From: an uncultured Clostridiaceae bacterium
GTDB taxonomy: Bacteria; Bacillota; Clostridia; Clostridiales; Clostridiaceae
Direction: 5' to 3'
Length of the DNA stretch: 32,000 nucleotides
NCBI GenBank assembly: GCA_942490885.1
Contig: CALNYT010000002.1
Coordinates: forward strand, 1,184,807-1,216,806
This document shows positions 21,186 through 32,000 of the stretch, piece by piece. Position numbers and translations under genes: made by a program. Position 1 is the stretch's first letter. Each line of letters starts with the position of its first letter. The notes beneath the pieces are model-generated. The model ran no database searches and was not told where the DNA came from. It worked only from the letters and a program-made list of their open reading frames with translations.

Positions 21186-21881
21186 ATGGTAGAGGTTTTT
21201 GCTGTAAATGTAAATAGAGATATGAAAGAATTTGAGTTTGAGAAATTATTGAGACTAGTTTCAGAGGAAAAAAAAGAGAGAATACAGAGATTTCGTAGAT
21301 ATAAGGATTCACAGATGTGTCTTGTTGCTGATGTTCTCATGAGAAAAATAATTTGTGACAAGTATAATATTAATAATAGGGAAATCACATTTATAAAAGG
21401 TATTAATGGTAAACCAGAACTAAATAAACCACATAGTAATATTAAGTTTAATTATTCTCACTCAGGAGATTGGATCGTATGTGCAGTGAGTGAAGTTCCT
21501 GTCGGAGTTGATGTGGAGAGAATTAAGGAAATAGATATGGCAATTGCTGAGAGATTCTTTTCCAAGAGTGAATATGATGATCTTATGAAATTAGAAGGTG
21601 ACAAGCAATTAAACTACTTTTACGATCTTTGGACTCTTAAAGAGAGTTATATTAAGTGGGATGGTAGAGGACTATCGATTTCACTGCAGGATTTTTCATT
21701 TAAGATAAAAAATAATAATTTTGTAAAATTCCAATCTGAAAAACACAATAATCTTTGCTTTTTTAGGCAGTATTTAATAGATAGTGAATATAAACTATCA
21801 GTGTGTTCATGTGAAGATGATTATAGTAATGAGGTAGATATTTTTGAGTTTGATAAATTAATAGAGAGTTTATGTAAATAG
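21186..21881 (+). CDS. Sfp-type 4'-phosphopantetheinyl transferase
   Basis: 231-aa ORF with a GGGGGAG RBS. Motifs: GKPEL, FNYSHSGDWIVCAVSEVPVGVDVERI and WTLKESYIKWDGRGLS (W/FxxKESxxK). Confidence 0.85.
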   Translation: MVEVFAVNVNRDMKEFEFEKLLRLVSEEKKERIQRFRRYKDSQMCLVADVLMRKIICDKYNINNREITFIKGINGKPELNKPHSNIKFNYSHSGDWIVCAVSEVPVGVDVERIKEIDMAIAERFFSKSEYDDLMKLEGDKQLNYFYDLWTLKESYIKWDGRGLSISLQDFSFKIKNNNFVKFQSEKHNNLCFFRQYLIDSEYKLSVCSCEDDYSNEVDIFEFDKLIESLCK

Positions 21882-21904
21882 GTATGATAGTGTCAGGACA
21901 AGCG

Positions 21905-21954
21905 CAAAGAAGAGGAGAGTTCAATATAATTTTAATGAACTCTCCTCTTCTTTG
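21905..21954 (+). terminator. intrinsic terminator after the PPTase gene
   Basis: CAAAGAAGAGGAGAGTTCA (21905-21923) pairs perfectly with TGAACTCTCCTCTTCTTTG (21936-21954). The 3' arm is T-rich. Confidence 0.7.
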
Positions 21955-22153
21955 TAGGTACATAGATTTAAAAATGAATAATATAAAGTTTTAAGTCGAA
22001 TTTAAATATGAAAAAAAATGCAACAAAGAAAATAAAAAGAAAAAGTCGAAAAAGTTTACAAAAGAATTATAAAGTAATAAAATTATACTTACATATTGTG
22101 TTTTTTGATGGAATGCTATGTATTTTTGTAAAAAAAAGATATAGAATAGGGGT

Positions 22154-28881: not shown

Positions 28882-28884
28882 ATT

Positions 28885-28921
28885 AATTGAACTTACTTTC
28901 ATTATGAGAGTAAGTTCAATT
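28885..28921 (+). other. 16-bp stem hairpin between the NRPS and peptidase-ABC genes (no U-tract)
   Basis: AATTGAACTTACTTTC (28885-28900) pairs with GAGAGTAAGTTCAATT (28906-28921), with one G-U pair and loop ATTAT. No T-run follows, so it is not a classical terminator. It may be an attenuator, processing site or stability element. Confidence 0.4.
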
Positions 28922-29031
28922 CAAGTAGATAATCATAGCATACTTGATTATATGTAGTCTATGTATAAAGATAATAAAATAGGTCGGTGTACAAGCAGGT
29001 GCACTAGATATAAATAGGAGGAATTAATAAT

Positions 29032-32000
29032 ATGAAAAGAATGAAAAAGATATTTGTTTTAATGAGCGCTATTTTAATTACTATAGCTTTACCTTTTCAA
29101 AGTTTTGCATTAAATAATGATACAAATGTAAATATCAATCTATCAAAACTTAAAATAAATGAAATAGAGACTTTTGTAGAAAAGCAAATGAAGAAAGGGA
29201 AAATACCAGGAATGTCTGTAGTGATTGTCAAAGGAGACAAGACTATTTATCAAAATGGATTTGGGTATGCAAATATTGAAGAAGACAAAATGGTGACTGA
29301 TAAGACTTTATTTGAACTTAGTTCAAATAGTAAAGCTTTTACAGGATTAGGGATATTAAAACTACAAGATGATGGGCTAATCAATTTAGAAGATCCAATC
29401 ACAAAATATATCCCTTGGTTAAAGATGAAATATAAAGGAAAAGAAGTTGAAATAACCCTAGAACAGTTTTTTCATCATACTAGTGGAATCCCATTTAAAA
29501 GTATAGATAAGATACCAGTTACTAATGATGATGATGCACTTGAGAAAACTGTTAGAACATTGATAGATATAGAATTAGATAGCGAACCAGGAGAAATGTT
29601 TCAATATGCAACTATAAACTATGATGTATTAGGATTGGTAATTGAAAAAGTTACTGGAGAATCATATGAAAAGTATGCTGAAGATAATTTATTAAAACCA
29701 ATGAATTTAAGTAATACTCATTTATATAGAAGTAAAGATATTAAGGATGATATTGCAAAAGGATATAAAATTGGATTTTTAAAACCACAAGTATATCAAG
29801 CACCTGAATATAGAGGAAATAAACCAGCAGGATATTATATTTCTAATGGTGAAGATATGGCGAAATGGCTTAAAATTCAGCTTGGAACTTATAAGGATAG
29901 TAAATTTAATGAAGAATTGATTAAACAATCACATAATGCAAATCGAAAAGTAGCTCCATTAGGAGATGGCTCATCATATGCTGCAGGTTGGTTTGTCTAT
30001 CAAAAAGGTGGAGGAGAGATTTCACATGGAGGAAATAATCCTAATTATTCATCTTTTATAGTATTTAGTCCAGAAAAACAAATTGGAATTGCAGTATTAA
30101 GTAATTTAAACTCTGAATTTGTAGGAGATATCGGACAGGGTATAAATGAAAGATTACAGGGAAACGAATACAACACAAATACCAAAGATATGAATAAGAG
30201 TGTAAATTTGATTTCAATCTTAATCATATGTACCACAACGTTAATAATCGTAAGTACACTTTATTTTATGTTTAACTGTTTACTAGAGATTATGAAAAAA
30301 GAAAGGAAGTTTTTTAAAAAGGATATAAAGGGTATTTTAAAGAGTTTAATTTCTTTGATTTTTATAATTGGAGTAACATACTGCATTTATTTAATCCCTA
30401 ACATTTTATATATGGGAGTTACATGGGACTTTGTTTTTGTATGGTTACCTAAAACAGTGAAAATTGCACTATATCTAACTTATATAACTCTATGGGGAGT
30501 ATACATCTTTTCATTAATTACGAGTTTTTATAAAAAAAAAGGTGACAAATCAATATTAATATTATTATTATTAAGCATTGTCAGTGGTCTAGGAAACTCA
30601 CTTATAATTTTTACAATAAATATGGCCATAAACAGCAGTAATAATCTAAAGTTAAAATTGTTGGTTTATTTTGCACTTGGACTAATTCTATATGTATACG
30701 GACAAAAACTTGTAAGAGTAAAACTAATAGAAATTACTAATAACATTATTTATTCAAAACGAATGAAAATTGTTAAAGCACTATTGAAAACACCATATGA
30801 TCAGTTCGAGAATATTGAAAAAGATAGAATTCAGACAACATTAAATAATGATACTGAAAGAATAAGTGGGTTTGTAAATATTTTGATTGGTGGAGTAACA
30901 AGTGCAGTTACACTTATATGTTGTTTTATGTATTTAGGGTTTGTGAATATTTACGCATTATTATTGGCAGTAATAATGATACTTTTTATTGCGAGTATTT
31001 ACTATTTTGTAGGTAAATATGCAAATAAAGTTGGAGAAGAATCAAGGGATCTTCAGAATAAGTTTTTTAAATTTATTAATGATTTAATCGAGGGATTCAA
31101 AGAGTTAACTTTTAATGAAAAGAGGAAAAATGAGTTTCAAGTTGATATGGATGAGAGTTGTAATAAGTATAAAGTAAAAAGAGGACAATCACAATTAGCA
31201 TTTGCAAATATGTTTGTTATAGGTGAATTACTATTTACTTTAGCAATTGGAGCCGTTGCATTTGTATTCCCTTTGATATTAAAAAACCTAGATGGTACTA
31301 GTATAGCAAGTTATGTTTTTATATTGCTATATATGACAGGACCAGTACACGGGATATTAGATACAATACCCAATGCAATAGAAGTGAGAATAAGTTGGAA
31401 GAGAATTAATGATTTATTAAACACGATTGATCAAGGGGAATATAAAAAATTAGAAGAAAGAGATAGAAATATAAACAAGAAGATAAAGTTGAAATTAAAC
31501 CAAGCGGAATACGAATATAACAACAAAGAAGGGCGGAACTTTAAAGTAGGTCCAATAGATTATGAATTTAATTCTGGTGAGATAGTATTCATTACTGGAG
31601 GAAATGGAAGTGGTAAATCTACTTTGGCTAAATTAATAAGTGGGTTATATAAAACTTCAAAAGGAAATGTTACGTTAAATGATGAGAAAATTACTGAAGC
31701 AATCCTGAGTCAACAATATTCAACTATATTTAGTGATTTCTATTTGTTTGATAAGTTATATGGGGTTGATTATAAAAATAAGGAAGAAGATATTAAAAGA
31801 TATTTGGAAGTATTACAGTTAGATAAAAAGGTTGATATAGAGGATGGAAAATTTAGTACAACTAAACTATCAACAGGTCAAAAAAAGAGACTAGCACTTT
31901 TAGTTACTTATCTAGAAGATAGACCAATTTATTTGTTTGATGAATGGGCAGCAGATCAAGACCCAGAGTTTAGAAAATTCTTCTACAATACGCTTTTGCC
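29032..32000 (+). CDS. ClbP-like S12 (beta-lactamase-fold) peptidase fused to a cyclic-peptide-type ABC exporter (3' end outside window)
   Basis: Absent from the supplied track because it has no stop in the window. I translated 989 uninterrupted codons from ATG 29032 (GGAGG RBS). It starts with a signal peptide (MKRMKKIFVLMSAILITIALPFQSFA). The S12 domain has SxxK at S98-N-S-K101 (Ser codon 29323-29325), FQYATINYDVLG (YxN-like) and SHGGNNPNY (HxG). Hydrophobic helices follow from ~aa 385. An ABC TMD starts at ~aa 505. The NBD has Walker A GGNGSGKST (31597-31623), signature LSTGQ (31867-31881) and Walker B LFDEWAADQD, typical of SyrD/PvdE-type cyclic peptide exporters. Confidence 0.85.
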   Translation, partial: MKRMKKIFVLMSAILITIALPFQSFALNNDTNVNINLSKLKINEIETFVEKQMKKGKIPGMSVVIVKGDKTIYQNGFGYANIEEDKMVTDKTLFELSSNSKAFTGLGILKLQDDGLINLEDPITKYIPWLKMKYKGKEVEITLEQFFHHTSGIPFKSIDKIPVTNDDDALEKTVRTLIDIELDSEPGEMFQYATINYDVLGLVIEKVTGESYEKYAEDNLLKPMNLSNTHLYRSKDIKDDIAKGYKIGFLKPQVYQAPEYRGNKPAGYYISNGEDMAKWLKIQLGTYKDSKFNEELIKQSHNANRKVAPLGDGSSYAAGWFVYQKGGGEISHGGNNPNYSSFIVFSPEKQIGIAVLSNLNSEFVGDIGQGINERLQGNEYNTNTKDMNKSVNLISILIICTTTLIIVSTLYFMFNCLLEIMKKERKFFKKDIKGILKSLISLIFIIGVTYCIYLIPNILYMGVTWDFVFVWLPKTVKIALYLTYITLWGVYIFSLITSFYKKKGDKSILILLLLSIVSGLGNSLIIFTINMAINSSNNLKLKLLVYFALGLILYVYGQKLVRVKLIEITNNIIYSKRMKIVKALLKTPYDQFENIEKDRIQTTLNNDTERISGFVNILIGGVTSAVTLICCFMYLGFVNIYALLLAVIMILFIASIYYFVGKYANKVGEESRDLQNKFFKFINDLIEGFKELTFNEKRKNEFQVDMDESCNKYKVKRGQSQLAFANMFVIGELLFTLAIGAVAFVFPLILKNLDGTSIASYVFILLYMTGPVHGILDTIPNAIEVRISWKRINDLLNTIDQGEYKKLEERDRNINKKIKLKLNQAEYEYNNKEGRNFKVGPIDYEFNSGEIVFITGGNGSGKSTLAKLISGLYKTSKGNVTLNDEKITEAILSQQYSTIFSDFYLFDKLYGVDYKNKEEDIKRYLEVLQLDKKVDIEDGKFSTTKLSTGQKKRLALLVTYLEDRPIYLFDEWAADQDPEFRKFFYNTLL

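Follow-up and report, generated by a model that had tools for sequence, protein, structure and literature searches.

Prodrug pathways built on an N-acyl-D-Asn cap are known from several bacteria. In colibactin, xenocoumacin and zwittermicin biosynthesis, the cap is built by a dedicated nonribosomal peptide synthetase (NRPS) module, namely ClbN, XcnA and ZmaO (PMC8264950), and is removed by a peptidase of the S12 family. These prodrug peptidases are set apart from other S12 enzymes by a small set of residues. In ClbP, S95, K98 and Y186 are catalytic; D-Asn recognition involves Ser or Thr rather than Asn at position 188 and a strictly conserved N331 oriented by E92; position 257 is His or, more often, Asn; and W460 and W466 are conserved in the linker between TM2 and TM3 (PMC9889268). 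In a large subset of the family, represented by EdeA, PamJ and ZmaM, the peptidase is joined to a "cyclic peptide transporter"; the family is most common in Firmicutes (PMC9889268). Here we describe a locus of this kind in a 32,000-nucleotide stretch (the window) of contig CALNYT010000002.1 from an uncultured Clostridiaceae bacterium (GCA_942490885.1). The region analysed, positions 21186-32000, is likely to be the 5′ part of an NRPS cluster which uses the N-acyl-D-Asn prodrug strategy and into which an RRNPP-like regulator has been inserted. As judged from sequence comparison, the mechanism would be the known ClbN/ClbP-ZmaO/ZmaM strategy, and the distinguishing feature would be a rare regulator/pro-peptide pair, which was found beside the same loader or cassette genes at three loci.

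Six intact genes were present on the plus strand of this region, at or very near the coordinates where a previous sequence-only reading had placed them. The window ends within the last gene. We assigned gene families with Pfam and NCBIfam domain models; domains and motifs bore out all six assignments proposed earlier: an Sfp-type phosphopantetheinyl transferase (PPTase), a helix-turn-helix (HTH)-tetratricopeptide repeat (TPR) regulator, a small pro-peptide, a type II thioesterase (TEII), a loading NRPS with condensation (C), adenylation (A), thiolation (T) and epimerization (E) domains, and a fusion of an S12 peptidase with an ATP-binding cassette (ABC) exporter. The PPTase had the motifs GVDVE and WTLKESYIK, of the two-domain, Mg-binding and WxxKE types. 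It was 39-47% identical to PPTases of related cassettes, and the TEII was 64% identical to that of the Clostridium tagluense cassette.

The specificity code of the loader A domain was taken as the ten positions from the A4, A5 and A10 motifs, with loader homologues aligned by MAFFT. It reads DLTKIGEVGK, the same ten residues as in the ZmaO orthologue of Bacillus cereus plasmid pRML04. This code was also present in the loaders of C. tagluense, GCA_018433765, C. cavendishii, UBA4548, UBA6640 and Oceanirhabdus sp. W0125-5. It is treated in the Asp/Asn section of a recent survey (PMC12283262), and the A domain is, as read from its code, specific for Asn. Both HHxxxDG motifs were intact (HHIIADG at residue 133 in the C domain and HHLIVDG at residue 1171 in the E domain). 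The translated E domain also contained an ERHGRE motif and scored 136.6 bits against TIGR01720 (cutoff, 74.2 bits). The first C domain showed 44-72% identity to the C domains of other loaders (46% to that of ZmaO) and only 21-27% to elongation C domains of the same loci. The entire loader was 100% identical in an independent sequencing run, in which it was carried by an 8979-bp Logan contig ending inside the fusion gene.

The fusion protein matched the Pfam families Beta-lactamase (S12; 3.7e-68), ABC_membrane (residues 509-768) and ABC_tran (residues 841-973), and TIGR01194, "cyclic peptide export ABC transporter", with 314.9 bits (cutoff, 286.2 bits). A full-length copy, P0001 (1024 amino acids), was 100% identical, so only 35 residues lie beyond the window. 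The nucleotide-binding domain (NBD) contained a Walker A motif (GGNGSGKS at 856) and LSTGQ (at 946). Over its N-terminal 480 residues, the protein aligned with full-length ClbP structures 7MDC, 7MDE and 7UL6 (E about 1e-66); the 7MDC alignment spanned residues 44-479 and ran through the three-helix membrane domain, in which hydrophobic segments were located at 388-422, 431-463 and 478-496. By helix count, the peptidase lies on the outer side of the membrane and the NBD on the inner side. When aligned by MAFFT, the catalytic residues corresponded to S98, K101 and Y192, the D-Asn-recognition residues to T194, N336, E95 and N263, and the linker tryptophans to W465 and W471, with K246 and F467 conserved as well. 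The same residue pattern was seen in the ZmaM orthologue and in clostridial fusion homologues.

Colibactin and xenocoumacin follow the same prodrug logic as the window, and all functionally tested ClbP residues were kept here even though overall identity to ClbP was 33%; H257 of ClbP is Asn in the window, as in most family members. However, ClbP and XcnG are periplasmic, stand alone and go with a separate exporter; the window peptidase is fused to its exporter. The host is Gram-positive and therefore has no periplasm, unlike the hosts of ClbP and XcnG. Because fusions such as EdeA, PamJ and ZmaM are on record (PMC9889268), the peptidase-exporter fusion described here belongs to a known subclass.

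The Pfam name of the peptidase domain, Beta-lactamase, and its best PDB match, by a small margin Staphylococcus aureus Flp, could instead point to a beta-lactamase or a resistance or cell-wall enzyme of the penicillin-binding protein type, carried on a multidrug exporter and unrelated to the NRPS. We regard this as very improbable. Position 188 is Thr rather than the Asn of the S12 family, equivalents of N331, E92, W460 and W466 are present, and so is the three-helix domain of ClbP. In addition, a C-A(Asn)-T-E loader was linked to the fusion in every inspected relative for which upstream DNA was available. With an Asn code identical to that of ZmaO, the E motifs, the ClbP residues, the three-helix domain and the ZmaM-like fusion, the N-acyl-D-Asn prodrug logic proposed in the sequence-only reading held up, and a prodrug function of loader and peptidase is highly probable on these comparisons.

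Zwittermicin is among the closest known systems; its zmaM-zmaO-zmaP-zmaR comprise the same four functions (fusion, loader, thioesterase and Sfp-type PPTase). On pRML04 (NZ_CP011152), both the A code and the active-site and D-Asn-recognition residues of the peptidase are identical to those of the window. Identity was 44% for the loader, 47.8% over 1015 residues for the fusion, 30% for the thioesterase and 36% for the PPTase (ZmaR orthologue). The published order on pRML04 is zmaK-like hybrid, flavin oxidoreductase, zmaM, HAD, zmaO, thioesterase, zmaQ, PPTase and kab. Gene order in the window is different; it has no HAD or flavin oxidoreductase gene, and no kab genes were seen. The zma stretch examined on pRML04 has no counterpart of the regulator/pro-peptide pair. 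The hosts differ too, an AT-rich Clostridium-like anaerobe here (24-31% GC across the region) and B. cereus or B. thuringiensis for zwittermicin.

More similar cassettes were found in clostridia. A scan of GTDB representatives returned relatives at 68% identity or less only, and a metagenome scan for the locus returned nothing above 41%. Cassettes of C. tagluense, GCA_018433765, UBA4548, UBA6640, C. felsineum, C. beijerinckii and C. botulinum have the gene order of the window and fusions of 63-72% identity; however, none of them has a regulator with its peptide placed between PPTase and TEII. Further NRPS or polyketide synthase (PKS) modules occurred within 10 kb in nine of ten related cassettes. 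In L002, L019, L020, L032 and L034, they lie directly 3′ of the fusion gene or one small gene later. The order in C. tagluense (CP077605) is PPTase, TEII, loader, fusion and a 5654-amino-acid NRPS; GCA_018433765 has the same order followed by an NRPS of 2879 amino acids, and modules 3′ of the fusion were also present in UBA4548, a Bacillota metagenome-assembled genome, UBA6640, C. felsineum (an NRPS-PKS hybrid) and C. beijerinckii. The downstream lines vary, and some include genes of the 2,3-diaminopropionate (Dap) type. The PPTase-TEII-loader-exporter/peptidase cassette appears, from these comparisons, to have been plugged onto many different assembly lines in clostridia. By analogy, and with synteny as the sole evidence, we are fairly confident that a partner synthetase lies immediately downstream of the fusion in the present locus; the sequence-only reading had put this more strictly, holding that elongation megasynthases must follow beyond 32000.

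In UBA6640, the fusion gene is followed by a gene for a pyridoxal phosphate (PLP)-dependent enzyme and an ornithine cyclodeaminase-family gene (L005 13122-15081). We take this pair to resemble SbnA/SbnB-type 2,3-diaminopropionate synthesis, a hint that UBA6640 may use a building block like those of zwittermicin or paenilamicin.

Oceanirhabdus sp. W0125-5 (CP115913; L022) differs from the Clostridium cassettes. It has the closest loader, a homologous regulator with a 59-amino-acid peptide, a ZmaM-type fusion and an NRPS that ends in a thioesterase (TE) domain, arranged as NRPS(-TE), fusion, loader, regulator and peptide; further modules thus precede the fusion. PPTase and TEII were not seen in the stretch examined. 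A search with the terminal NRPS module of Oceanirhabdus gave no match above 46% but also missed the self match and is therefore uninformative.

The genes of the window have different closest relatives. Loader identity was 75.6% to Oceanirhabdus vs 54-57% to the Clostridium cassettes, whereas fusion identity was 71.5% to C. tagluense, 69% to L020 and 68% to UBA4548 vs 51.7% to Oceanirhabdus; the window PPTase was only 39% identical to that of C. tagluense. The spacer between loader and fusion (28882-29031) is 151 nucleotides long, compared to 54-75 nucleotides in the relatives, and carries a hairpin (28885-28921). Lying between genes with different closest relatives, this spacer is possibly a recombination joint. 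Because of the differing relatives and the long hairpin-bearing junction, the cassette looks assembled by recombination, and the loader, regulator and peptide look to be of one ancestry and the exporter-peptidase of another.

The regulator matched HTH_3 with 22.3 bits, as well as TPR_12, TPR_1 and other TPR families. The probable start is TTG 22163, because a database copy (P0121) has 439 amino acids and the sequence AGGGGTG is located 7 nucleotides upstream. An AF2 model (pLDDT 91.7) showed a five-helix HTH bundle followed by paired helices of a TPR superhelix up to the C-terminus. Size and architecture are within the norm of RRNPP receptors, which have about 250-500 amino acids with an N-terminal HTH and a TPR-type domain. 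The 57-amino-acid open reading frame (ORF) overlaps the regulator stop codon by 7 nucleotides and has a strong ribosome-binding site, GAAAGGGGA. Its product begins with MLKK and 15 hydrophobic residues, which, judged by eye, is signal-like, and its length fits RRNPP pro-peptide ORFs (about 15-65 amino acids, beside the receptor). The same arrangement, a cytoplasmic HTH-TPR receptor of ~430 amino acids and, after it in the same direction, a small ORF with a Sec-type signal, is seen in RRNPP systems such as NprR/NprX, PlcR/PapR, Rap/Phr and the QsrB type, although close homology of the window regulator to any characterised receptor was not detectable.

Only two close relatives of the regulator were found in a word-indexed search of 5.8 billion proteins. 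The first, 69% identical, is encoded on a 2.4-kb contig (L023) with the gene order of the window: the end of a PPTase gene, the regulator, a 47-amino-acid ORF and the start of a TEII gene (88% identical). The second, in Oceanirhabdus, is 55% identical, comes after the 76%-identical loader and the ZmaM-type fusion, and is followed by the 59-amino-acid ORF. The small ORFs of all three loci begin with M(L/F)KK and a hydrophobic stretch and share a conserved core, which is EKQQPIEIAELGSGDISP in the window, EKKQCIQVAELGSADAEP in L023 and EKKQIHFAGIEPGDCEP in Oceanirhabdus. In L023 the ORF ends ten codons sooner; the DNA is still conserved and those codons are non-coding there. The window peptide can therefore probably do without its C-terminal VLFVIDNNQEG, and it is probably the conserved core that holds the signal. 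An exhaustive HMMER search revealed, in addition, a wider family of 400-440-amino-acid proteins at 24-31% identity to the regulator. A profile of 41 members was collinear with the whole TPR domain of NprR (4gpk, 5dbk; E about 1e-18) and with RapH.

The proposal of a peptide-pheromone module was supported by the receptor architecture, a signal-bearing small ORF at three loci and linkage to the cassette in another genus. The narrower label of an RNPP-type regulator stood in part: size, architecture and the small ORF agree with it, but similarity to RNPP receptors did not exceed that to generic TPR proteins. Our assessment, from sequence features, is that the pair is rather more probably than not a pheromone system that controls the cluster.

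Several observations weigh against the picture of a functional, pheromone-controlled prodrug cluster, and the first set concerns the regulator. In the comparison with the 41-member profile, generic or designed TPR proteins outscored NprR and RapH. Foldseek with the regulator model ranked generic TPR folds highest, with Rap of pLS20 in 18th place, and a single-sequence PDB search retrieved mainly generic TPR proteins and no RNPP member. The HTH_3 score falls just below the Pfam cutoff of 23 bits. An inverted repeat, TACATA-N21-TATGTA (22090-22122), occurs once in the window vs 0.31 times expected by chance and is found at the equivalent place in L023, but is absent upstream of the Oceanirhabdus regulator. 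It is a weak candidate operator, barely above chance, and no operator common to all three regulator loci was found. These observations, and the lack of the regulator/peptide pair in the closest cassettes (C. tagluense and L020), would fit an ordinary pathway-specific or unrelated regulator, with the 57-amino-acid ORF not its pheromone and the cluster not quorum-regulated. We consider this unlikely, though it is the most serious of the alternatives, because the receptor suits RRNPP systems in size and architecture, the small ORF shows translational coupling, a signal-like N-terminus and a core kept across regulators of only 55-69% identity, and the profile is collinear with the NprR peptide-binding domain. 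Moreover, RRNPP systems inside biosynthetic gene clusters (BGCs) have been catalogued, with 196 BGCs, seven of them in Clostridiaceae, and the clostridial rows of Table S5 of that catalogue include QsrB-type pairs of the same size (433-436 plus 38-52 amino acids) in regions with NRPS calls (PMC10075063). The QsrB-NRPS region of C. felsineum, the one catalogued case that was cross-checked, was examined as a prodrug cluster and rejected, as it is about 4.1 Mb from the prodrug cassette of that genome.

A second set concerns the assembly line. In C. cavendishii DSM 21758 (L003 5398-13075), the loader and fusion lie between acetyl-CoA carboxylase and carbamoyl-phosphate synthase genes, and no other A or C domain was found within 10 kb. 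The cassette can thus exist without an adjacent partner. In addition, the first C domain of the window loader is assigned only provisionally to the starter (acyl-transferring) subtype, by its position, which also implies an external acyl donor, and by ZmaO orthology. What a stand-alone cassette makes and exports would be no more than a lipoamino acid, N-acyl-(D-)Asn, or a very short lipopeptide, with no elongation megasynthase past 32000; the TEII beside the loader could release the acyl-Asn thioester. Such a cassette is improbable here. It would leave a peptidase that keeps every D-Asn-recognition residue without a substrate to cleave, and further modules accompany nine of the ten related cassettes, including the three inspected ones with the most similar fusions (C. 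tagluense, L020 and UBA4548), where they lie directly 3′ of the fusion. The acidic C-terminal tail of the loader, TPSDFDAADISQEDLDMLFG, is docking-like and conserved, its pattern TPSDF...DISQEDLD(M/S)LF being kept in six of seven aligned homologues (that of UBA6640 is cut by an ambiguous base). We presume that this tail is akin to the donor docking helix, an NRPS communication-mediating domain, of synthetases that terminate in an E domain, such as GrsA. In relatives, partner NRPSs open with M..KLDK.NIEN...LTS.Q.GMLFHY, by its sequence a motif of the kind seen in C domains for a D-configured donor (DCL-type). The PPTase gene of C. cavendishii is located 5.5 kb beyond its orphan loader-fusion cassette.

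The third set concerns decay. A paralogue of the fusion, P0068, is encoded on the same contig as P0001. It has 749 amino acids and is 84% identical overall (88% over the best local segment), but is truncated, with neither the ClbP membrane domain nor the C-terminus; a second cassette, in decay, is thus implied for the same genome. The loader of C. beijerinckii CP107022 (L034 3893-9972) is disrupted by an IS110-family transposase, which separates its C domain from its A-T-E part, and the initiation module of an otherwise large NRPS cluster is therefore inactivated. Both cases show that such cassettes decay. A decayed LanM fragment is also present in the window, 5 kb upstream. A locus that is silent or in decay and no longer functions is nevertheless quite improbable, since all six ORFs are intact with their catalytic motifs kept and the loader was recovered unchanged in the independent sequencing run.

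Features of the intergenic DNA bear on transcription. The hairpin at 21904-21954 had a ΔG of -33.8 kcal/mol (z -7.6), and none of 200 shuffled sequences folded equally well; it is probably a terminator that parts the PPTase gene from the genes 3′ of it. Given such a stable hairpin between the PPTase and the rest, the six genes probably do not form one operon; the coherent same-strand system suggested earlier was recovered with all genes present and intact, but probably not as a single transcription unit. The hairpin at 28885-28921 (ΔG -19.6 kcal/mol, z -6.6) has no U tract and is possibly a partial terminator, an attenuator or an mRNA-stability element. No RNA structure or terminator was found between the 57-amino-acid ORF and the TEII gene, and a regulator-peptide-TEII-NRPS transcript, hence autoinduction, is plausible. 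Conservation with L023 is visibly good over the ~150 bp upstream of the regulator (mean column identity of the whole alignment, 74%). This leader holds a promoter-like TTTACA-17-TAAAAT (22055-22083), also conserved in L023; a promoter consensus scan gave no excess over shuffled sequence (56 sites vs 55.8), and its other sites were disregarded. Logan annotates a 52-amino-acid ORF (22008-22166) as a gene; we do not regard it as coding, since its reading frame is disrupted in L023 though the DNA is kept.

These features can be arranged into a scheme in which we infer the acyl donor, the downstream line, the product, the processing and sensing of the peptide and the direction of regulation. The Sfp-type PPTase would prime the carrier domains. 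The loader would activate L-Asn, its N-terminal C domain would N-acylate Asn with a presumed fatty acyl donor, and the E domain would invert the acyl-Asn to the D form. Through its acidic tail, the loader may then dock onto a separate elongation NRPS, which we expect to be encoded just after about 32107, while the TEII would clear mis-primed carriers. Export of the finished, inactive pre-drug would fall to the ABC half-transporter within the fusion, and the extracytoplasmic S12 domain, held at the membrane by the ClbP-type helices, would cut after D-Asn, freeing N-acyl-D-Asn and the active compound outside the cell. The HTH-TPR protein is proposed to sense a re-imported, processed form of the secreted 57-amino-acid pro-peptide and would probably drive the regulator-peptide-TEII-NRPS(-exporter) transcript, such that production is autoinduced at high cell density.

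No paper that characterises an N-acyl-D-Asn pathway from clostridia turned up in our literature search. The sequence-only reading had called the combination of prodrug genes and pheromone regulator unfamiliar. In novelty this claims too much: peptidase-exporter fusions have already been described (PMC9889268) and RRNPP systems in clostridial NRPS clusters have been catalogued (PMC10075063), and the rare regulator/pro-peptide pair is a modest regulatory variation. More tentatively, and as a possibility that we would not yet favour, the loader, HTH-TPR receptor and pro-peptide, a trio closest to Oceanirhabdus while the exporter-peptidase is closest to C. tagluense, may have been co-inherited across genera as the dedicated pheromone switch of a ClbP-type pathway. 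An anaerobe would then make a prodrug metabolite of the N-acyl-D-Asn kind that is the first under quorum control, and its product would be related to none of zwittermicin, colibactin and the amicoumacins.

Understanding of the mechanism is unchanged by this locus; it is extended to a new host group and regulatory context, and the locus is a sensible target for genome mining. The strategy offers a handle for discovery in anaerobes, as the released N-acyl-D-Asn is predictable and inactivation of the peptidase should trap the intact precursor. The candidate inducer peptide might serve to switch on a cluster that is otherwise silent. Should the pheromone link hold, production of a toxic metabolite, self-protection and population sensing would be wired into one locus. 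The coordinates of all features are collected in Table 1.

Table 1. Features of the proposed prodrug locus, with positions in the window and residue numbers of the encoded proteins
Feature	Position	Strand	Details
Sfp-type PPTase	21186..21881	+	231 amino acids; Pfam ACPS 1.8e-19, AASDHPPT_N 2.9e-18
Stable stem-loop 3′ of PPTase gene	21904..21954	+	arms 25 nucleotides, 92% complementary
Conserved non-coding leader/promoter of regulator	22009..22162	+	
HTH(Xre)-TPR regulator	22163..23482 (TTG start; alternative GTG 22154)	+	439 amino acids
57-amino-acid pro-peptide ORF	23476..23649	+	no family match
Conserved-core stretch of pro-peptide, candidate source of inducer peptides			IEIAELGSGDISP
TEII	23703..24410	+	235 amino acids; Pfam Thioesterase 3.9e-38; GHSMG motif
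Loading NRPS, C-A(Asn)-T-E	24400..28881	+	1493 amino acids
NRPS C domain	24412-25698	+	Pfam Condensation, residues 5-433; at extreme N-terminus
NRPS A domain	25771-27204	+	AMP-binding residues 458-805, AMP-binding_C 862-935
NRPS T domain	27280-27468	+	PP-binding residues 961-1023
NRPS E domain	about 27517-28878	+	second Condensation-type stretch and TIGR01720
Stem-loop just 3′ of NRPS stop codon	28885..28921	+	arms 18 nucleotides, 94% complementary
ZmaM-type S12-peptidase/ABC-exporter fusion	29032..32000, runs off window	+	989 of 1024 amino acids in window
Fusion signal/anchor	N-terminal	+	
Extracytoplasmic S12 D-Asn peptidase domain (predicted)	about 29167-30117	+	
ClbP-type three-helix membrane domain	about 30193-30519	+	
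ABC exporter transmembrane domain	about 30556-31335	+	
ABC NBD	31552 onward	+	

Several other features of the window were recorded. Directly upstream of the PPTase gene (18960-20976) are genes for a GNAT acetyltransferase and a Fes-like esterase (Enterochelin_N and Esterase domains), a pair not present in the flanks of related cassettes. A second Xre-type HTH protein (11356-12288, 310 amino acids) has a helical C-terminal part with no Pfam match beyond the HTH, and no signal-bearing small ORF was found beside it. No rRNA or tRNA genes were found in the window. On the minus strand, a class I (Met-type) aminoacyl-tRNA synthetase of 663 amino acids (13154-15145) is preceded by a T-box leader (Rfam RF00230, 107.6 bits, 15266-15509). 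A radical SAM/SPASM-domain enzyme (233-1477), followed by an unassigned 163-amino-acid ORF, a ComB-like 2-phosphosulfolactate phosphatase and a major facilitator superfamily (MFS) transporter, could be a maturase of peptides that are made on ribosomes and modified after translation; it is unrelated to the NRPS. The segment 15500-17900 is poor in ORFs and has a decayed look, and a 104-amino-acid fragment of a LanM dehydratase domain (DUF4135, 16274-16588) together with several short unassigned ORFs suggests a degraded lanthipeptide locus.

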